DNA of 64,000 nucleotides from a bacterium HR35 (GTDB lineage: Bacteria; Patescibacteriota; Minisyncoccia; UBA6257; HR35). The DNA lies in NCBI GenBank assembly GCA_002898235.1, contig BEIL01000002.1, positions 51,264-115,263 of the forward strand, written 5' to 3'. Both the position numbers and the translations under genes were made by a program. A model generated the notes under the pieces. That model was given only the letters and a program-made list of their open reading frames with translations, was not told the origin of the DNA and searched no databases. Positions 5,430-43,593 of the stretch are shown here, piece after piece; position 1 is the stretch's first letter, and every line of letters starts with the position of its first letter.

Positions 5430-5591
5430 ATGCAAAACAATAATCAATCACAAAAAAGCTTGACATCGATTAGAAAAAAGATAGTTGAAGAAAAAAGAAA
5501 ATATTTTGAAAATTATCTTGAATATGCGAGGAAAATAAAAGAAAAAGCAATTGAAGTTTTAGGTGAAGCAAGAGTTTTAGTTTTTGGTTGA
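5430..5591 (+). pseudogene. truncated nucleotidyltransferase (Pol-beta/MNT-like) remnant
   Basis: 53-aa ORF ...LEYARKIKEKAIEVLGEARVLVFG* stops right at the conserved G[SG]..D motif region of minimal nucleotidyltransferases. Confidence 0.3.
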
Positions 5592-5676
5592 GAAGAATTT
5601 CAAAACTGGTGGCAAAAATTTATAAAATCTGATTATCTTGAAGTATAATTAAAATTAGAAGCTAATAAGCTATTCT

Positions 5677-5749
5677 GCGGCGGTAGTTCAGCTGGTAGAA
5701 CGCCTCCCTTCCAAGGAGGAGGTCGCGGGTTCAAATCCCGTCCGCCGCT
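5677..5749 (+). tRNA. tRNA-Gly (anticodon TCC)
   Basis: 73-nt cloverleaf folded by hand: acceptor GCGGCGG/CCGCCGC, D-stem GTTC/GAAC, anticodon stem CCTCC/GGAGG with loop CTTCCAA, T-arm GCGGG-TTCAAAT-CCCGT, discriminator T, no encoded CCA. Confidence 0.9.
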
Positions 5750-5773
5750 CAAATTTTTTTAGATTTTAATTCA

Positions 5774-7873
5774 ATGTTAGTTCAAGATTTTAAAAACATT
5801 CTCCTTTTTTTAATCTTTCTAATTCCTTTTACTTTGCTTATTTTTGATCCAGCAGTTCTTTTTCCTTATATTACGACCAAGGCTTTAATTTTTAGAGTTT
5901 TAGTTACTCTTTCTTTACCTTTTCTTTTTTATATTCTCCTTTTAGACAAAAAACCATTTCAAAAAATTAAAAATTATCTTCTTTTAGCTTGTTTTTTCTA
6001 TTTTCTTGTTTATTCTCTTTCTGGCTTTTTAGGACTTAATCCTTATCGTTCTTTTTGGGGTAATGCTGAAAGAATGGAAGGAATTTGGTCTTTATTTTTC
6101 TATTTTCTTTATTTTTTTATTTTGTACCTTCTTTTCTCTTATGACCCAAAACTTAAAAAAACAATTTTTTGGTCTTTCGCTTTAGTCTCTTTTTTGATAA
6201 GCATTTTAGAAATTTATCAATATTTTACCTTGGGAGCTTTAAGGCCATCAGCTACTTTAGGTAATCCTACTTATATTGGTTTTTTTAATCTTTTAATGTT
6301 CTTTCTTTTACTTTATTTTTATTTTGAAACAAAAGATAAACTTGAAAAACCAATTTTTATTTTTTTGGCTCTTTTAAATCTTTTTTCTCTTTTTACTTCA
6401 GAAACTCGAGGAAGCATTTTGGGGCTCTTAGCTGGTCTTTTTATTTTTGGTTTTTATTATGCCATTTTTTCACAAAAAGAACTTAAAAACAGGATTAAAA
6501 TCATATCTTTATTCTTAGTTGCTATCATAGCTTTTGTTTTAATACTTTTAAGTCCAATTTCTGCTTTTCTTCCAGGAATTAATCGACTTAGTGAAACTTT
6601 AAGAAACCCAGTTTCTGTTTTTCCTCGATTGTTTGCTTGGAAAATCTTTTTTGATGGCTTTAAGTCCAGTCCATTAATTGGTTACGGTCCAGAAACAGAA
6701 CCAATTGTTTTTTTTAAGTTTTTCGACCCAAAAATTTACGAATATGAAGCGGCTATTTTTGATCGTCCCCATAATAAATTTGTTCAAATTTTAGTTAATT
6801 CAGGAATTTTAGGAATGATTAGTTGGCTTTCAATTTTTATTGCTTTTTTTTATTATCTTTTTCAAAACAAAGAAATGAATTCTCTTCAAAAAGCTTCTCT
6901 TTCAGGATTTATTTTTGCTTATCTAGTTCAAAACTTTTCTTTATTTGATATGCAAGCAAGCTATTTAGTTTTTTTCTTTGGCTTAAGTTTAGTTATTCCT
7001 AAATTAGAATTTAAGTTTGATGAAGAAAAATTTATTCGGCCTTATTTAATTTTAGTTGGTGGTTTAAGTTTAATCTTTTTAACTTTTCATTTTAGTCACT
7101 ATTACATTCTTTCCTCTTTGATTAAAACAAGTAAAATGACAGATTATAATAAAGCTGCCGAAGAATTTGAAAGACTTTCAGAAATTGCTGGACCATTTTT
7201 AACCGAGGAAGCTATTCATCTAGTCCATCCTTATTTTTTTAAAGTAATTGAAAGTGGAGATAAATCAGCTTTAGAAGCAATTTTCCGTCTTTACGAAGTA
7301 ATTAAAAAAGCCTATAAAAAAGAACCTCTTGATCAACGATTGATAACCAAATCTTCTTCTCTTGATTTATATTTAGCCAATTTATTTTTAGTTAATAATT
7401 TACCCAAATATAATGACTATTTAACTAGTTTTCAAGAAACCATAGAAAAATCGATTGAATTTTACCCAAAAAATTACGAATTAATTATTTTTTATGCCCA
7501 AAACCTTGTTTTTTTAGAAAAAAACTATCCAAAGAAATTTAATTTTAAAGATAAGGTAATAAATCTTGTAGTTTCTCGAGAAAAATATTTTGAAAATTTC
7601 CCTCCTTATTTTTTAAATGAAGCAAAAATTATTTCCTTTTATGACAAAGATTTAGCTAAAGAAAAATTAAAGTTAGCTATCAAAAAAGGCTTAAATTTAA
7701 AAAAGGAACAATATGTTTCAACTATTTTAGATGTTTTGTCAGAAATAAAGGATAAAGAAATTTTAATTCAAGTTGTTAAAATTGTGGAAAAAGAAAAATT
7801 TTCAACTCAAACTCAAGAAAAAATTGAAAAAATTAAACTTGAATTTCTTTCAACTAGCACTCTCCACAATTAA
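5774..7873 (+). CDS. Wzy_C / O-antigen ligase family polytopic membrane protein with ~280-aa C-terminal soluble helical-repeat domain (possible O-oligosaccharyltransferase)
   Basis: About 12 predicted TM helices; periplasmic-loop motif DRPHNKFVQILVNSGILGMISW resembles the Wzy_C/WaaL/PglL signature (HN.YLQ.L.E.GIIG). Confidence 0.55.
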   Translation: MLVQDFKNILLFLIFLIPFTLLIFDPAVLFPYITTKALIFRVLVTLSLPFLFYILLLDKKPFQKIKNYLLLACFFYFLVYSLSGFLGLNPYRSFWGNAERMEGIWSLFFYFLYFFILYLLFSYDPKLKKTIFWSFALVSFLISILEIYQYFTLGALRPSATLGNPTYIGFFNLLMFFLLLYFYFETKDKLEKPIFIFLALLNLFSLFTSETRGSILGLLAGLFIFGFYYAIFSQKELKNRIKIISLFLVAIIAFVLILLSPISAFLPGINRLSETLRNPVSVFPRLFAWKIFFDGFKSSPLIGYGPETEPIVFFKFFDPKIYEYEAAIFDRPHNKFVQILVNSGILGMISWLSIFIAFFYYLFQNKEMNSLQKASLSGFIFAYLVQNFSLFDMQASYLVFFFGLSLVIPKLEFKFDEEKFIRPYLILVGGLSLIFLTFHFSHYYILSSLIKTSKMTDYNKAAEEFERLSEIAGPFLTEEAIHLVHPYFFKVIESGDKSALEAIFRLYEVIKKAYKKEPLDQRLITKSSSLDLYLANLFLVNNLPKYNDYLTSFQETIEKSIEFYPKNYELIIFYAQNLVFLEKNYPKKFNFKDKVINLVVSREKYFENFPPYFLNEAKIISFYDKDLAKEKLKLAIKKGLNLKKEQYVSTILDVLSEIKDKEILIQVVKIVEKEKFSTQTQEKIEKIKLEFLSTSTLHN

Positions 7874-7944
7874 CATCCTTGACTTTAAAAAAATTTTTTT
7901 TAATAATGGAAGTACAAAAAAATTAAAAATCTATTGTTTTAAAA

Positions 7945-10900
7945 ATGAGACAAAAACAAAAAATTTCTTTTATTAAAAGGTTTTTTACCAAAGAAAATGT
8001 TCATCCCTACGACGAAGTAAATTGGATAAAAACTACAGCTGAAATTCCTGGTTCTGGTTTTAGAATGGAAGATGTAGAATTTCCTGATTTTTACAGCCAA
8101 AATGCAATTAATATCATTGCTTCTAAATATTTCAAAGTAAATAAAGGCAAACAAGAAAAAAGCTTAAAAGAACTTATTGATCGGGTTGTCAAAACCTCTA
8201 AAAAATGGGGATTAGAACAAGGATATTTTGATGAAAAAGAGGCAGAAATTTTTGAAGCAGAATTAACTTATATTTTACTTCATCAATATGCTGCTTTTAA
8301 TTCTCCTGTTTGGTTTAATTTTGGAGTTGAAGGAAGACCTCAAACTGGTGCTGCATGTTTTATCTTAGATGTTGAAGATAGTATGGAGTCAATTTTGGAT
8401 TGGATTAAAACCGAAGGAATGATTTTTAAAGGAGGTTCTGGTTCAGGAGTTAATTTATCAAAACTAAGAGCAAAAGGAGAACCACTTTCAACTGGTGGAG
8501 TTTCTTCAGGGGTTATTTCTTTTATGAAAGCAGCCGATGCTGTTGCTGGAAGTATAAAATCTGGAGGCACGACGAGGAGAGCGGCAAAAATGGTTGTTTT
8601 GAATGCTGACCATCCTGAAATTATGGATTATATTCGAGTTAAAGCTGAAGAAGAAAATAAAGTTAGAGCTTTGATGGAAGCAGGTTATGATATGACTGAT
8701 TTAAACAATCCTTTGTGGCAAAATATTTTCTTTCAAAATGCAAATAATTCAGTAAGAATTCCTGATGCTTTAATGGAGGCAGCAATGAAAGATGGTGAAT
8801 GGAAAACTTATTATCGCACCTCAGGTAAAGTAGCCCAAGTTTATAAAGCTAAAGATATTTTATGGGAAATTGCTAAAGCTGCTTGGGAATGTGGTGATCC
8901 AGGAGTTCAATTCGATGACACTATCCAAAAATGGCATACTTGTAAAAATTCAGGAAGAATTGAAGCAACTAATCCATGTGTTCCAGGTGATACCTTAATT
9001 GCAACAAATGAAGGTTGGAAAAGAATAAAAGATTTAGTTGGCAAAAATCCAATTATTATTACTCAGAAAATAGAAACGCGGACTACATACGGACTATACA
9101 CGGACTATACACGGACAGAACACAGACAACACACGGACAAAAAGGACAAAATAAATATGTCCGATAAATCTATGTCTAGTCCAAAAAAATCCATTAATAA
9201 GTCCGAACAGTCCGTGTTAAGTCCGATAGAGTCTGTTGAAAATCAGGTTGTTGAGAAAAGAGCTTTAAGAGTTTTTAAAACAGGAATCAAGCCAGTTTAT
9301 AAAATAATAACTCGTTCTGGTTATGAATTAAGAGCAACAGAGGACCACCCAATTTATATTGAAGGCAAAGGAGATGTTAAAGTTAAAGACCTTAAACCAG
9401 GAGATAAAGTAAGATTAATCGGTGCCGGCTTTGGTAATAAATCTTTAGATTCAGATATTGCTTTTATGATTGGTTATTTTGCTGGCGATGGAGCTATAAG
9501 TTATGATTACAACCATCAAAGATTTAGTATTTTCTTTACTGGAGGCAATGAAGATATTTATGCTTTAAATTACATCAAAAGCACAATAAATGAAAAACTT
9601 CAATCTAAACACAAAGCTCAAACTAATTTAAGAAGATTAATCTCAGAGTTTGTTGTTGCTACAAGTAGAGAAAATGTTGCTGAAATTTTAAATCAATATT
9701 TTGATTTTCAAAGAAAAATATTTAAAGATTCAGTTTTCGATTTAGACAAAGAATCAATCAAAAATATTCTTAAGGGATTATTTACTGCTGATGGAACAAT
9801 TACTGGTAATCCTCAAAAAGGATTTTATGTTGGTTTAGATAGTTCTTCTTTAGAGCTTTTAAAACAAGTACAGCTTTTGCTTTTAAATTTTGGCATTAAG
9901 TCAAAAATTTATAAAAATAGAAGAAGCAAATTAGAACAATACTTACCTGATTCTCAAAGAAAATTAAAACTTTATCAGGTAAAACAACAACATAGTTTAA
10001 GAATAACAAGAAGTTCAAGAGTAATTTTTGAAAAAGAAATTGGTTTTTATGAATTGCATCAAAAGCAAGAAAAATTAGAAAATATTAATCAAAAATATGA
10101 AGCTTATAAAGACCATCTTTATGATGAAATTAAAGAAATAGTTTTTGATGGCATTGAAGAAGTTTATGATTTAACTGAGCCAGAAACATCTCATTTTGTT
10201 GCTAATGGTATTTTAGTTCACAATTGTGCTGAATATATATTTCTTAACTGGACAAGCTGCAATCTTAGTTCAATTAATCTCTTAAAGTTTCTTAAAGATG
10301 ATAGTAAATTTGATGTTCCTGCATTTCTTCATACTGTTAGAGTAATGTTTTTAGCTCAAGATATTATGGTTTCTAAAGCTGATTATCCTCATCCAAAAAT
10401 TGCTGAAGAAACTAAAAAATACCGAACAATCGGCTTGGGTTATACAAATTTAGGTGCTTTGATTATGGCATTAGGCCTTCCTTATGATTCTGATGAAGCT
10501 CGAGATTTAGCTGCCAGCATTACAGCTTTAATGACAGGCGAAGCTTACAAACTTTCAACTGAAATTTCAGCCAAACTTGGTCCATTTCCTGAATATGAAA
10601 AAAATAAAGAACCAATGCTTGAAGTAATGGAGCTTCATCGTAAAGCATTAAAAAATGTTAATGAAAATGATTTTAATAAAGAGATTTTAAATAAAGCTAA
10701 AGAAGTATGGGATGAAGTAATTGAGCAAGGTAAAAAATATGGTTTTCGTAATGCTCAAGCAACAGTTATCGCGCCTACTGGGACAATAAGTTTTATGATG
10801 GATGCTGATACTACTGGAGTTGAACCTGATTTTGCTTTAGTTAAAATGAAACAACTTGTCGGCGGTGGTTATATGAAAATTGTAAATAAAACAGTTCCTC

Positions 10901-11841
10901 TTGCTTTAAGAAGGCTTGGTTATAGCGAAAAGGAAATCGAAGATATTGTTAAACACTTAGAAGAAACCCAAAATATTGAAACAGCTCCGCATCTTAAACC
11001 AGAACATTTACCTGTTTTTGATTGTGCTATTAAACCACCTGGAGGAAAAAGATATATTCATTGGTTAGGACATGTAAAGATGGTTGCTGCTATTCAACCC
11101 TTCATAAGTGGTGGAATTTCAAAAACCTTCAATATGCCTAATGAAACAACAATTCAAGAAATTTATGATGCTTACTTTACTGCTTGGAAATTAGGAATTA
11201 AATGTTTTTCTGTTTATCGTGATGGTTCAAAAGCAACTCAAGCTTTATATACTGAAAAGAAGGAAAAGAAACCTCAAGAAAAACTTGGTAGAAGAAGGTT
11301 ACCTGATATTAGGCCATCTGAAACTCATAAATTCTCAGTTGGTGGTCATGAGGGTTATCTAACTTATAGCACTTTTGAAGATGGCAGTCTTGGAGAAATC
11401 TTCATCCGAATGGCAAAGCAGGGCAGTACTTTAGCAGGCCTTTTAGATGCTTTTGCAATTGCAGTTTCAATTGCTCTTCAATATGGAGTGCCCTTAAAAG
11501 AACTTGCTAGTAAATTCATTAATATGAGATTTGAACCATTGGGCTTAACTAATAATGAAAAAATAAAAACAGCTACCTCAATAGTGGATTACATATTTAA
11601 ATATTTAGCTTACCGTTTTCTTTCTAAAGATGAATTAGAAGAATTGGGTCTTTTGACTGAAGTTGATAAAGAAAAACTAGTTTTAAAAGAACATCCAACG
11701 CTATTTGAAATAAAAAATAATCCAAACAATAATTTAGCTGAAATTTCAGGCCCCCCATGTGTTCATTGTGGAGGAATAACAATTAAAACTGGTGCTTGTT
11801 ATACTTGTATAAGTTGCGGAGAAACTACAAGTTGTGGCTAA
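7945..11841 (+). CDS. nrdJ: adenosylcobalamin-dependent (class II) ribonucleotide reductase NrdJ, interrupted by an in-frame intein
   Basis: Extein junction TNP|C..HN|CAEYIFLNWTSCNLSSINL restores the RNR active-site motif NPCAE...CNL; C-terminal CxxC..CxxC zinc ribbon; extein length about 882 aa. Confidence 0.75.
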   Translation: MRQKQKISFIKRFFTKENVHPYDEVNWIKTTAEIPGSGFRMEDVEFPDFYSQNAINIIASKYFKVNKGKQEKSLKELIDRVVKTSKKWGLEQGYFDEKEAEIFEAELTYILLHQYAAFNSPVWFNFGVEGRPQTGAACFILDVEDSMESILDWIKTEGMIFKGGSGSGVNLSKLRAKGEPLSTGGVSSGVISFMKAADAVAGSIKSGGTTRRAAKMVVLNADHPEIMDYIRVKAEEENKVRALMEAGYDMTDLNNPLWQNIFFQNANNSVRIPDALMEAAMKDGEWKTYYRTSGKVAQVYKAKDILWEIAKAAWECGDPGVQFDDTIQKWHTCKNSGRIEATNPCVPGDTLIATNEGWKRIKDLVGKNPIIITQKIETRTTYGLYTDYTRTEHRQHTDKKDKINMSDKSMSSPKKSINKSEQSVLSPIESVENQVVEKRALRVFKTGIKPVYKIITRSGYELRATEDHPIYIEGKGDVKVKDLKPGDKVRLIGAGFGNKSLDSDIAFMIGYFAGDGAISYDYNHQRFSIFFTGGNEDIYALNYIKSTINEKLQSKHKAQTNLRRLISEFVVATSRENVAEILNQYFDFQRKIFKDSVFDLDKESIKNILKGLFTADGTITGNPQKGFYVGLDSSSLELLKQVQLLLLNFGIKSKIYKNRRSKLEQYLPDSQRKLKLYQVKQQHSLRITRSSRVIFEKEIGFYELHQKQEKLENINQKYEAYKDHLYDEIKEIVFDGIEEVYDLTEPETSHFVANGILVHNCAEYIFLNWTSCNLSSINLLKFLKDDSKFDVPAFLHTVRVMFLAQDIMVSKADYPHPKIAEETKKYRTIGLGYTNLGALIMALGLPYDSDEARDLAASITALMTGEAYKLSTEISAKLGPFPEYEKNKEPMLEVMELHRKALKNVNENDFNKEILNKAKEVWDEVIEQGKKYGFRNAQATVIAPTGTISFMMDADTTGVEPDFALVKMKQLVGGGYMKIVNKTVPLALRRLGYSEKEIEDIVKHLEETQNIETAPHLKPEHLPVFDCAIKPPGGKRYIHWLGHVKMVAAIQPFISGGISKTFNMPNETTIQEIYDAYFTAWKLGIKCFSVYRDGSKATQALYTEKKEKKPQEKLGRRRLPDIRPSETHKFSVGGHEGYLTYSTFEDGSLGEIFIRMAKQGSTLAGLLDAFAIAVSIALQYGVPLKELASKFINMRFEPLGLTNNEKIKTATSIVDYIFKYLAYRFLSKDELEELGLLTEVDKEKLVLKEHPTLFEIKNNPNNNLAEISGPPCVHCGGITIKTGACYTCISCGETTSCG
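8977..10224 (+). mobile_element. intein (416 aa) with LAGLIDADG homing-endonuclease domain inserted at the RNR catalytic Cys
   Basis: Block A CVPGDTLIATNEG, block B ATEDHPIYIEG, two LAGLIDADG motifs (IGYFAGDGAIS, LKGLFTADGTITG), block F/G ...SHFVANGILVHN followed by the +1 Cys. Confidence 0.85.
9078..9236. repeat. imperfect palindromic array of ~11-nt repeats (cggac units on the left, gtccg units on the right) lying in-frame inside the intein
   Basis: tacacggacta repeated in tandem about 6 times, then mirror-image gtccg-containing units; local centre ggacaaaataaatatgtcc near 9142-9160; GC-richer than surroundings. Confidence 0.6.
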
Positions 11842-14374: not shown

Positions 14375-15271
14375 TTATAAAATATTTTTCCTCCTTTTGC
14401 CATGGAAGGCGCGGTGAATTTCTTTAAGTTCTTTATTGGTTAAATGAGTATAAATTTGGGTTGTTTGTAAATTTTTATGGCCTAATAATAGTTGAATAGC
14501 TCTTAAATCAGCTCCAGCCATCAATAAATCAGTTGCAAATTGATGCCTTAGGGTATGAGGAGTTATTTTTTTTAAGATTCCTGATTTTTTTGCATAATAC
14601 TTAATTATTTTTTGAACTCCCCGAGGAGTTATTCTAGTAAATTTTTTGTTTTTGCTTAAATTAATAAAAAGAGCTGGATTATTATCAGTTCTTTTCTCTA
14701 AATATTTTTTTAAATAAAGTTTAGCTAAGGGTGATAAAAAAACAATTCTTATTTTTCCGCCTTTTCCTTTGACTGGTATTTCTCCCTTTTTTAAATCAAT
14801 ATCTCTGTTTAAACTACAAATTTCAGAAACCCTAAGTCCAGTACTAAATAAAGTTTCTAATAAAGCTCGGTCTCTTAAAGATTTTAAATCTTCACCTTCA
14901 GCTGATTTTAAAAATCTATCTAATTCTTCATCGGTTAGAATATTAATTTCTCTTTCAGGAATTTTAGGTAATTCAATTTTTTCTGGATCAAGAACTTCAT
15001 AGCCTTTTTTCTTTAAAAATCTTAAAAAACTTCTTAAAGTAATTAAATAATAACTTTGGGTTTTGATTGAGATGTTTTTTTTGTCAAGATAAAAACGGAA
15101 TTTAAAAATACTTTCTTCATCTAAAGAAGTAAAATTGTTAGTTTTTAACCAGTCAATAATTTTTTTTAATCGTGAAAGATAAACCTTAATTGTTCCTTGG
15201 CTTTTATTTTTTTCCAATCTTAAATAGGCTTCGAAACGAGGTAAAAACGACTCTATTTGTTTTAAATCCAT
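14375..15271 (-). CDS. tyrosine site-specific recombinase (XerC/XerD family)
   Basis: C-terminal catalytic region HTLRHQFATDLLMAGADLRAIQLLLGHKNLQTTQIYTHL (R, H-x-x-R, Y); N-terminal SAM-like core-binding domain. Confidence 0.8.
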   Translation of the reverse strand: MDLKQIESFLPRFEAYLRLEKNKSQGTIKVYLSRLKKIIDWLKTNNFTSLDEESIFKFRFYLDKKNISIKTQSYYLITLRSFLRFLKKKGYEVLDPEKIELPKIPEREINILTDEELDRFLKSAEGEDLKSLRDRALLETLFSTGLRVSEICSLNRDIDLKKGEIPVKGKGGKIRIVFLSPLAKLYLKKYLEKRTDNNPALFINLSKNKKFTRITPRGVQKIIKYYAKKSGILKKITPHTLRHQFATDLLMAGADLRAIQLLLGHKNLQTTQIYTHLTNKELKEIHRAFHGKRRKNIL

Positions 15272-15295
15272 TTTATGTTAAAATAATTATAAACT

Positions 15296-15559
15296 ATGCC
15301 AATTACAAAAGAAAAAATTAGAGAAATTATTAAAAAATATGGGAAGAATGAAAATGATTCCGGTTCTCCTGAAGTTCAAATTGCTTTATTGACAGAAGAA
15401 ATCCTAAATTTAGCTGAACATTTGAAAAAACATAAAAAAGATAAAAATTCTAAGAGAGGATTGATTTTAAAAATTGCTCATCGAAAAAAACTTCTAAAAT
15501 ATTTACAAAAAGTTTCTTTTGAAAGATATAAGAAAATTACTAAAGAATTAGGATTATGA
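15296..15559 (+). CDS. rpsO: 30S ribosomal protein S15
   Basis: 87 aa, ...[25 protein letters not shown].. typical S15. Confidence 0.9.
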
Positions 15560-42942: not shown

Positions 42943-43593
42943 ATGAAAGTTCCGGTTTATAATAAAGAAGGACAAGTGATTGAAGAGATTGAAATTCCTA
43001 AAGAAATAAGTGAACTTGAATTTAATAAAGATTTAGTTCATCAAGTAATGAGATGGCAAATGCTGAATAGCTATTTTCCTTATGCTCACACTAAAACAAG
43101 AGCCGAAGTTAGAGGAGGAGGAAGAAAGCCTTGGCCCCAAAAACATACCGGTCGAGCTCGCCATGGTTCTATTAGATCACCCATTTGGAGAAAAGGAGGA
43201 GTAACTTTTGGTCCAAGAAAAGAAAAGATAAGAAATATTAAAGTTAATAAAAAAATGAGAAGAAAAGCAATTTTAATGGTTTTAGCTGAAAAATTAAGAA
43301 GGAATTATTTAAAAATTTTTGATGATTTAAATTTTGCTAATGGTAAAACTAAAGAAGTAGCAAAATTTTTAGCAAAATTTTTAGCAAAAAGAAAAACAAA
43401 GAAAAAAAGAGAAACAGCCCTTTTGGTTTTAGAAAATAATAATCGAGAAACAATTAGAGGAACAAGAAACTTGCCTTATGCTGATGCTATTGAGGCAAGA
43501 AATTTAAATATCTTATCTTTACTTAATCACAAATATGTTTTTTTAGAAAAGAGAGCAATTAATAAAATTTTGACAACTTTTAAAATAAAATAA
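42943..43593 (+). CDS. rplD: 50S ribosomal protein L4 (contains 12-nt tandem duplication encoding AKFLAKFLAK at ~43359-43388)
   Basis: RGGGRKPWPQKHTGRARHGS. Confidence 0.9.
   Translation: MKVPVYNKEGQVIEEIEIPKEISELEFNKDLVHQVMRWQMLNSYFPYAHTKTRAEVRGGGRKPWPQKHTGRARHGSIRSPIWRKGGVTFGPRKEKIRNIKVNKKMRRKAILMVLAEKLRRNYLKIFDDLNFANGKTKEVAKFLAKFLAKRKTKKKRETALLVLENNNRETIRGTRNLPYADAIEARNLNILSLLNHKYVFLEKRAINKILTTFKIK

Follow-up and report, generated by a model that had tools for sequence, protein, structure and literature searches.

A lineage-specific palindromic array of 11-nt repeats carried in frame by the nrdJ intein of bacterium HR35

Introduction

How does a palindrome built of short tandem repeats come to lie in frame inside an intein, which itself lies inside an essential gene, and what kind of segment is it? 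This question is raised by the window studied here, that is, the whole stretch of 64,000 nt (64 kb) of contig BEIL01000002.1 of bacterium HR35, where nrdJ encodes the 1298-aa precursor of a class II (B12-dependent) ribonucleotide reductase with one intein (gene at 7945-11841; open reading frame (ORF), Pfam, identical protein P0040), and where a repeat segment is located between blocks A (8977-9006) and B (TEDHP, 9337-9351) of the intein. Positions are those of the window, and the nrdJ features lie on its forward strand. A first-pass annotation, made from the sequence alone, had placed the segment between these two HINT blocks, correctly as the block coordinates show, and had taken it for a small palindromic insertion, either MITE-like (miniature inverted-repeat transposable element) or generated by slippage. 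We find that the segment is a lineage-specific insertion of 180 nt, and our preferred explanation, to which we give a probability of about 0.55, is that it is a copy of a palindromic tandem-repeat element of foldback type, MITE-like, that is tolerated by the protein as a disordered loop. The other explanations are weighed below at the points where the data bear on them.

The repeat array and its predicted hairpin

The left arm of the structure, at 9076-9141, consists of six 11-nt units of the ACACGGACTAT type. Tandem Repeats Finder gives a period of 11 nt with 5.5 copies at 9079-9138 and the consensus CGGACTATACA, and five in-register copies are reported by the repeat finder. Read in register, the units are ACGCGGACTAC at 9076, ATACGGACTAT at 9087, ACACGGACTAT at 9098, ACACGGACAGA at 9109, ACACAGACAAC at 9120, ACACGGACAAA at 9131 and AAGGACAAAAT at 9142, giving six to seven direct units over 9076-9148 with the core (A)CACGGAC(T). 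The right arm, at 9158-9236, is made of degenerate inverted units at irregular spacing, with the inverted cores GTCCG at 9159, 9201, 9210 and 9221, GTCC at 9179 and GTCTG at 9232. The centre between the arms is A/T-rich, and the array is followed by AAAAAGGACAAAATAAATA. The period of 11 nt corresponds to one helical turn.

The stretches 9090-9106 and 9209-9225 of the two arms are 88% complementary, and over 9079-9116 against 9209-9225 the repeat finder gives 82-88% complementarity across 16-17 nt. When the whole arms are aligned globally, 48/86 positions are identical, the right arm being far more degenerate than the left. Nearly half of the CGGAC/GTCCG pentamers of the window (9/20) fall in the repeat stretch. 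Moreover, the pattern CGGAC-N6-CGGAC with at most one mismatch occurs 6 times in the 64 kb, all in the array, where 0.03 occurrences are expected, and the array is far beyond chance. The roughly six tandem units followed by inverted ones that had first been described are thus upheld by Tandem Repeats Finder, by the repeat finder and by the pentamer counts, and the self-alignment confirms that both the periodicity and the inverted arms are real.

One detail has to be corrected. A perfect palindrome, 'ggacaaaataaatatgtcc', had been reported away from the midpoint of the array. It lies at 9144-9162 and is not perfect, being a 5-bp stem GGACA/TGTCC with a 9-nt A/T loop, AAATAAATA; it is centred on 9153, just 4 nt away from the midpoint of the entire structure (9157), and it is therefore the apex of the hairpin. 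The potential to form a hairpin, which had also been suggested together with an RNA fold as a check, is strong in prediction: the stretch 9070-9245 folds with -49.4 kcal/mol as RNA (z = -6.7) and with -23.2 kcal/mol as DNA (z = -4.8), and in both cases no shuffled sequence folds equally well. The segment is also richer in GC, as had been stated, with 39% against 28% for the remainder of the intein.

The empty site in orthologous inteins

Close relatives were found by search with the spliced extein; they have 80-88% extein identity, and in them the intein is absent, present at this site or present elsewhere. Same-site orthologous inteins of 356 aa are found in seven relatives (P0045, P0065, P0069, P0072, P0076, P0077 and P0103), and the four inteins aligned in protein alignment A3 are 71-76% identical to the window intein. 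The 356-aa orthologues are without exactly 60 codons that are present in the window intein: they read ..LVGKNPEIITHQG-IKKAVKVFKTG.., where the window intein reads ..LVGKNPIIITQK, then the 60 aa, then EKRALRVFKTG... At the nucleotide level, the filled site has 255 nt against 75 nt for the empty sites of loci L402 and L398, the former syntenic with the window, which gives a net gain of 180 nt. Based on the empty sites, the alignment and the model confidence described below, the in-frame insertion of 60 codons, encoding IETRTTYGLYTDYTRTEHRQHTDKKDKINMSDKSMSSPKKSINKSEQSVLSPIESVENQV, is placed at 9070-9249, with boundaries good to about one codon. More distant same-site inteins, with 40-45% identity, are also without the segment. 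The comparison with orthologous inteins that had been proposed thus identifies orthologues lacking the array and hence an insertion; the same linker without repeat structure was not found in homologous inteins. The empty-site sequence, ACCCACCAAGGAGTTAAAAAA, contains nothing resembling ACACGGAC.

It is noted that a word-indexed protein search with the intein as query returned only matches of at most 45% identity, while the extein query recovered the 71-76% orthologues and the window's own protein. This gap in the sensitivity of the intein-query search calls for caution wherever an absence of close homologues is reported. The extein search also gave a view of the inteins of the gene as a whole. 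Ten NrdJ relatives with 76-88% extein identity (P0041, P0042, P0064, P0066, P0084, P0085, P0088, P0090, P0092 and P0096) have LAGLIDADG inteins elsewhere in nrdJ, at three sites that follow GSIK, QQxSA and APTG; other relatives have none, and P0103 has two inteins. The nrdJ gene of the HR35 clade is a hot spot of intein gain and loss. NrdJ relatives of unusual length (917-979 aa) were considered as further carriers of arrays and were rejected, as the differences are terminal extensions or small loop differences.

Since palindromes and tandem repeats are error-prone in short-read assembly, it might be asked whether the insertion is an artefact of assembly or a chimera. We hold this to be the least probable of all the explanations, to be set aside almost entirely. 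Over the whole gene, and within it the 174-nt core of the insert (9072-9245), the NCBI record and an independent Logan assembly of run DRR101367 agree at every nucleotide. The length of the insertion is a multiple of 3 and the gene frame alone is open. Moreover, the comparable inserts of P0076, described below, were assembled identically by NCBI, ENA and JGI.

Tolerance in the protein and the reading frame

An AlphaFold2 run with an alignment of 14 sequences gave a mean predicted local distance difference test score (pLDDT) of 79.8 and a predicted template modelling score (pTM) of 0.78. Residues 55-108 of the construct (nt 9079-9240) have a pLDDT of 31-42, while the splicing and endonuclease domains are at about 90. 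The low-confidence segment coincides with the repeat and lies between beta-strands 46-50 and 111-115, the same strands that in the orthologues are linked by a tight THQG turn; the splicing blocks and both LAGLIDADG motifs are intact. The repeat is thus a lineage-specific 180-nt insertion at the tip of a beta-hairpin, and the model suggests a disordered loop on the surface of an intein that is otherwise modelled with confidence, which supports the early proposal that the insertion is tolerated inside a selfish element.

Translation of the ORF reproduces the peptide that had been quoted, in frame and with no stop. Across the element, the gene frame is the sole stop-free frame of the six. No stop occurs in any of the three forward frames of the left-arm units (of the CGGACTAT and CGGACTAC types), and a perfect palindrome rebuilt from the left arm has a stop in the gene frame of its right arm. 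In the actual right arm, stops are excluded from the gene frame alone. These observations speak for selection on the reading frame. The degeneracy of the right arm may then reflect the purging of stop codons.

Could the 60-residue loop, rich in T, R, Y, S and K, be itself a selected feature of the protein, for example a flexible linker tuning splicing or the activity of the homing endonuclease? The frame is strictly kept and the loop is in the N-terminal splicing domain, which would agree with such a role. However, the upkeep of the frame is already explained by the need to express nrdJ, the loop is absent from all orthologous inteins, and its low model confidence suggests disorder. Moreover, a phmmer search with the encoded peptide (61-aa query) among 1.84 billion representative proteins gave 0 homologues at E <= 0.001, and the composition is that of a translated DNA repeat: the 11-nt unit read in three phases gives TRTxHGLxTDx. 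From the absence of homologues and from this composition it follows that the peptide is no protein module, and selection for the loop is very unlikely.

Similar arrays in related genomes

If the segment is a copy of an element, similar arrays would be expected elsewhere. The first-pass annotation had proposed to look for a dispersed repeat family, and the outcome is divided: no unit is found elsewhere in the window plus 14 kb of flank, together about 78 kb of the HR35 genome, where no second copy of the element exists either, while arrays of the same architecture are found in related genomes of the Candidate Phyla Radiation (CPR), one of them with the identical ACACGGACT core. The nearest NrdJ relatives are labelled Pacebacteria, Parcubacteria or Patescibacteria, and the host is therefore a CPR bacterium.

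Three arrays are found in the exteins of relatives. In P0076 (locus L398, GCA_023255765.1), nrdJ has one insert at 5559-5753, with cores CGAAC/GTTCG, a gain of 180 nt and a fold of -88 kcal/mol, and a second at 6099-6290, with cores CACGAAT/ATTCGTG, a gain of 165 nt and a fold of -45 kcal/mol; this protein was assembled identically by the three databases named above. In P0058 (locus L401, GCA_026004535.1), an insert at 11495-11672 has cores CAGAACT/AGTTCTG and a gain of 147 nt, and sits in the loop that in P0076 holds the second insert. The units of the three extein arrays are about 10-13 nt long and occupy two variable loops of the NrdJ extein, where the window and other relatives have empty sites. 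Moreover, locus L401 has two intergenic palindromes of about 300 nt, at 9669-9940 and 15040-15370, with the core CCGGAT/ATCCGG around an A/T centre. They are composed of alternating ACCCGGAT/ACCGGAT units with a 25-nt dimer period and fold with -128 and -152 kcal/mol; one is upstream of nrdJ and one upstream of rpsO, so placed that they flank nrdJ and a gene for an XerC/D-like recombinase. No such array is present in the syntenic loci L402 and L405 or in the non-syntenic nrdJ loci L403 and L404.

The in-frame arrays have zero stops in the gene frame and stops in most of the other frames, and the intergenic arrays have stops in every frame. The cores of the arrays of the window and its relatives are alike, namely ACACGGAC, ACGCGAAC, ACACGAAT and ACAGAAC. 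These likenesses suggest that the arrays of the window, of the nrdJ exteins and of the intergenic sites form one related class.

A broader scan covered 185,579 species genomes with a pattern of three CGGACTA units at 11-nt spacing and gave more than 119 loci. Among these, the look-alike loci L152 and L153 belong to a metagenome-assembled genome (MAG) of the Minisyncoccia (CPR) with 27% GC. In L152, five units of the ACACGGACTAG type are followed by an A/T-rich centre and then by inverted units; the array is flanked by an ORF and tRNA-Lys, and its predicted fold has -60.2 kcal/mol (z = -9.2). None of its six frames is free of stops, the units reading TAG or TAA in place of the TAT or TAC of the window. 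At 23/26 positions the right arm of L152, GTCCGAACTGTCCGTGTATAGTCCGA, agrees with window 9201-9226, and a half-copy of the array is found between rpsL and rpsG of the same MAG. The likeness to the window is partly forced by the search pattern, and we treat it as suggestive only; the nrdJ relatives give the stronger support for an element class.

Most of the more than 119 loci are in Bacteroidota, several of whose genomes are multi-copy, and the arrays are next to conserved flanks in Pedobacter, Xanthomarina and Saprospiraceae. In a Bacteroidales MAG, BLK3-3.bin.96, and a relative (L144, L199, L215 and L242), palindromic 11-nt arrays occur on several contigs, and such arrays occur also at L259, L268, L283, L288, L174 and L187; an example of the Bacteroidales type has TTCGGACTAAA four times, the centre TTCGCTCATGAGCGAA and then TTTAGTCCGAA five times. 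A foldback architecture of tandem units is therefore found outside CPR as well. In Pedobacter, the end of a dispersed multi-copy element with the conserved sequence ..TTCGTGTTAAGGT..AGTCCGCATTTTTA..ATAAYGCGGACTAGATGCGGACTAGATGCGGACTTGCTAT.. is found at L156, L166, L201 and L210 (Pedobacter sp. UC225_61), at L171, L192 and L193 (P. planticolens) and at L222-L224, L238, L240, L253 and L254; judged from its sequence, this repeat looks like the subterminal region of some mobile element. In Xanthomarina/Aequorivita (L140, L164, L170, L179, L186, L151 and L213), ACGGACTATCT arrays of up to 9 units, these at a contig end, adjoin a conserved 'CGTCCTAAAATAACTATACAGGTTAT..AATCCTGAT' motif and are possibly the end of an integrative element.

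Dispersed element or local origin

As to the choice between a MITE-like and a slippage-generated origin that the first-pass annotation had left, the evidence leans to a dispersed element class of putative mobility. In the mechanism that we propose, foldback elements would occur sporadically in Parcubacteria-type CPR genomes, and in the HR35 lineage about 180 nt would have landed in the nrdJ intein, in the tight beta-hairpin turn that separates splicing blocks A and B. Because nrdJ must be translated and the intein must splice, only a copy with a length divisible by three and with a stop-free gene frame could survive. The element would now have no role in the protein, where it would be a passive surface loop. 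The class would spread by insertion, perhaps through a protein with affinity for the helically phased ACACGRAY units, much as subterminal repeats are bound by transposases; copies in coding DNA would persist only where the loop is permissive and the copy free of stops. Mobility of the class may be supposed. A wider version of the proposal, in which a CPR foldback class of about 11-nt units with the core ACACGRAY moves or is copied into intergenic DNA and into permissive loops of essential genes, repeatedly colonising nrdJ, is put forward tentatively, as something possible that we do not yet hold to be probable.

A serious rival is that the array arose on the spot, from a short seed in the codons of the hairpin turn that was multiplied by replication slippage into an 11-nt array and then copied in inverted orientation by fold-back (template switch), with no mobile element. 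The look-alikes elsewhere would then have arisen independently, by the same mutational process, in genomes tolerant of long palindromes. We consider such a local origin doubtful, yet several observations favour it, and most of these weigh also against the dispersed element. The array is the single copy in the 78 kb of HR35 genome, and further inverted arrays sought in the window were only chance pairs of AT-rich sequence. No convincing target-site duplication is found at any of the four in-frame array sites; the only possible one in the window, GAAAAT at 9066-9071 and again at 9238-9243, found by inspection of the sequence, is chance-like in A-rich DNA and implies 172 nt against the net 180 nt observed. 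No transposase is found among the ORFs of the window of at least 150 aa that were scanned or annotated; all that is present of this kind is a recombinase of XerC/D type. Each in-frame array, including every one of those in the relatives, has its own core, as independent local origins predict. The encoded peptide has no homologue, and there is thus no conserved sequence family with a conserved peptide. Against the dispersed element it also counts that in the genome scan about 2 of the more than 119 matches would share the extra ACA with the window by chance, that CPR genomes are not enriched among the matches, and that 11-nt arrays of arbitrary hexamers are common in phages, as detailed below. 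In favour of the local origin, slippage is seen elsewhere in the window: rplD (ribosomal protein L4, 42943-43593) has a perfect 12-nt tandem repeat, TAGCAAAATTTT, in 2.7 copies at 43358-43389, which encodes AKFLAKFLAK and is a simple in-frame slippage duplication.

By contrast, a local origin has difficulty with the following. The empty sites offer no seed like ACACGGAC, from which slippage could have started, and the insert is richer in GC than its surroundings (39% vs 28%). The cores of the independent arrays are far more alike than random 8-mers would be, and at L152, an intergenic site unrelated to that of the window, the CPR MAG has an array of equal architecture whose 9-mer core is identical. 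Finally, two independent in-frame inserts share the net size of 180 nt. On the side of the dispersed element it is also noted that terminal inverted repeats (TIRs) and hairpin potential, as in MITEs, are present, the 'TIR' being the subrepeat itself, and that the insertion is in frame in a functional ORF at a structurally permissive site, as for Rickettsia palindromic elements (RPEs). A comparison of the insert with phage and plasmid collections by blastn gave no match, possibly owing to the low-complexity filter.

A possible role of the array in cis

The segment might also be a functional cis-element, either a phased array of protein-binding sites (iteron, centromere or operator) or an mRNA hairpin slowing ribosomes or controlling the stability of nrdJ mRNA, the location in a coding loop being then incidental. 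Direct repeats at a phase of about 10.5-11 bp, that is, a helical turn, beside an A/T-rich tract are present as in iterons, the A/T-rich centre following the array. The strong predicted hairpin and the position of the large L401 arrays just upstream of nrdJ and rpsO would also fit. On the other hand, close relatives do without the array here, neither an initiator nor a partition gene is nearby, and the cumulative GC skew rises monotonically through 9 kb with no turn. An Rfam scan of 8500-9800 gave no match at E <= 1, and scans for promoters and terminators, made on the window element and on L152, gave nothing meaningful, with no terminator-like T-run and no promoter enrichment. The right arm is decayed, which is unexpected for a selected hairpin or site array. 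A role in cis is thus possible but unsupported, and we consider it improbable.

The part of this explanation that concerns iterons has a parallel in phages. It is well known that origins of replication can lie as iterons inside initiator genes, such as the lambda ori in O and SPP1 oriL in gene 38. In a scan of IMG/VR, about 110 loci have ACGGAC at 11-nt spacing, many of them in genes for DnaD-like helicase loaders. In-frame 11-nt ACACGGACTCA arrays are found in such a loader gene at 497-540 of L001 and at 334-407 of L004, and also in L003, L260, L265 and L281; the loader has 251 aa (phrog_2514), and behind the array come A-rich AAGAAT repeats and a gene for a primase-helicase. There are 4 copies of ACACGGACTCA in L001 and 7 in L004, and the difference of 33 nt keeps the frame. 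By its sequence layout, with in-frame repeats and then A-rich DNA as expected of an origin within an initiator gene, the phage array resembles an iteron origin, which lends the role in cis some support by likeness. Dozens more phage contigs have ACGGACAACAA-type arrays in a '..TATCAA..array..AAGAATGATAAGAAT' context.

The window array is like iteron origins in having direct repeats at about helical-turn phase, then A/T-rich DNA, in frame in a region coding for a linker. It is unlike them in that its host gene is no initiator, an inverted copy of the array comes directly behind, relatives lack the array and the skew does not change. Note also that control hexamers at 11-nt spacing gave 40 and 55 phage loci against the 110 for ACGGAC. 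These controls show that 11-nt arrays are general to phage iterons, and an ancestry of the window element from a phage origin was dropped; the phage arrays would serve as an analogy to the window array and are no evidence of ancestry. In the GC-rich phage contig L006, an intergenic stretch at 7733-7960 has ACGGAC three times on one strand, the same in inverted orientation at a distance of 90 nt, and three GTCCGTGACGGAC palindromes. This and other GC-rich phage matches with inverted CGGAC clusters were judged to be unrelated, being operator- or origin-like sites.

The intein and its genomic setting

The intein has 416 aa (CVPGDTL...GILVHN) at 8977-10224, with the +1 Cys at 10225, as defined by the sequence, Pfam and the alignment with same-site homologues. 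All hallmarks are present: the N-terminal Cys at 8977, the T-x-x-H of block B, VHN|C at 10216-10227 and two LAGLIDADG motifs at 9457-9495 and 9766-9798. The product of the nrdJ ORF has Pfam matches to Ribonuc_red_lgC, Ribonuc_red_2_N, TSCPD, Intein_splicing (E-value 1.4e-21) and LAGLIDADG_3 (2.1e-22), and P0040, the identical protein, is deposited as 'Vitamin B12-dependent ribonucleotide reductase [bacterium HR35]'. The neighbours of nrdJ are a Wzy_C-type gene, unknowns and the syntenic XerC/D-type recombinase gene. The window, with about 28% GC, is cellular rather than viral, containing recG, pnp, lepA, tuf, the S10-spc ribosomal protein cluster and secY.

Comparison with known systems

The architecture is the same as in the foldback (FB/Galileo-type) transposons of Drosophila, which have long inverted arms of short tandem subrepeats around a small centre. 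The window element likewise has inverted arms of tandem subrepeats and a small centre; the FB/Galileo-type transposons are eukaryotic, kilobase-sized and mobilised by known transposases. The GC clusters and palindromic elements of fungal mitochondria are GC-richer palindromes that spread in very AT-rich genomes, also in frame into ORFs of other selfish elements, LAGLIDADG ORFs among them; they are organellar, have 30-50 nt and no tandem-unit arrays. The window element is similarly a GC-richer palindrome in an AT-rich genome, in frame in another selfish element, but much longer. No prokaryotic foldback family of this architecture was found in the literature searched, and the literature searches for such repeats in CPR or in inteins also found none.

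Among bacterial elements, RPEs are palindromes of about 100-150 nt in AT-rich reduced genomes, which lie in frame in unrelated genes at fold-compatible positions and also between genes (PMC10969869). The window element is like them in being palindromic, in an AT-rich reduced genome and in frame at a fold-compatible site, with look-alikes that are intergenic. By contrast, RPE families are marked by conservation of the sequence and of the encoded peptides and by tens of copies in each genome, whereas the window element has arms of tandem 11-nt units, a peptide without homologue and one copy in 78 kb; moreover, its host is a CPR bacterium and its target an intein. By analogy, the window element would work like an RPE, and yet, with no conserved family sequence or peptide, it is not one.

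Bacterial MITEs are small, non-coding and hairpin-forming, with inverted termini, and are sometimes intragenic with in-frame fusions (PMC5896051, PMC10969869, PMC4596501). The comparison included Correia/NEMIS, ERIC, BOX, RUP, the QMITEs of Coxiella and a Porphyromonas gingivalis MITE with an internal minisatellite. Unlike MITEs, the window element has no TIR distinct from the subrepeats, no target-site duplication and no parent insertion sequence identified, the entire element being an array of subrepeats. In contingency (phase-variable) tandem repeats, a unit of a length not divisible by 3 lies inside an ORF and its copy number varies between strains; the unit of the window array has 11 nt, and the two assemblies that exist are identical in the array.

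Conclusion

In-frame insertion of palindromic repeats is itself already known; what is unusual here is the tandem-unit foldback architecture, the CPR host, the intein as target and the recurrence in nrdJ of relatives. The locus is a clean natural case of nested selfish DNA, a repeat palindrome within an intein within an essential gene. As a lesson useful for intein engineering, it shows that an intein can take up 60 disordered residues in the beta-turn between its blocks A and B. Since these genomes keep palindromes of -50 to -150 kcal/mol, one may ask how they cope with hairpin-prone DNA. Moreover, the recurring in-frame arrays in nrdJ of CPR relatives hint at an RPE-like creation of protein loops in a minimal-genome phylum, in which 'unexplained insertions' in conserved proteins are common. 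If the tentative proposal of a class that repeatedly colonises nrdJ is true, the class would be the CPR counterpart of the Rickettsia palindromic elements, with a different architecture and perhaps driven by a protein that recognises the unit.

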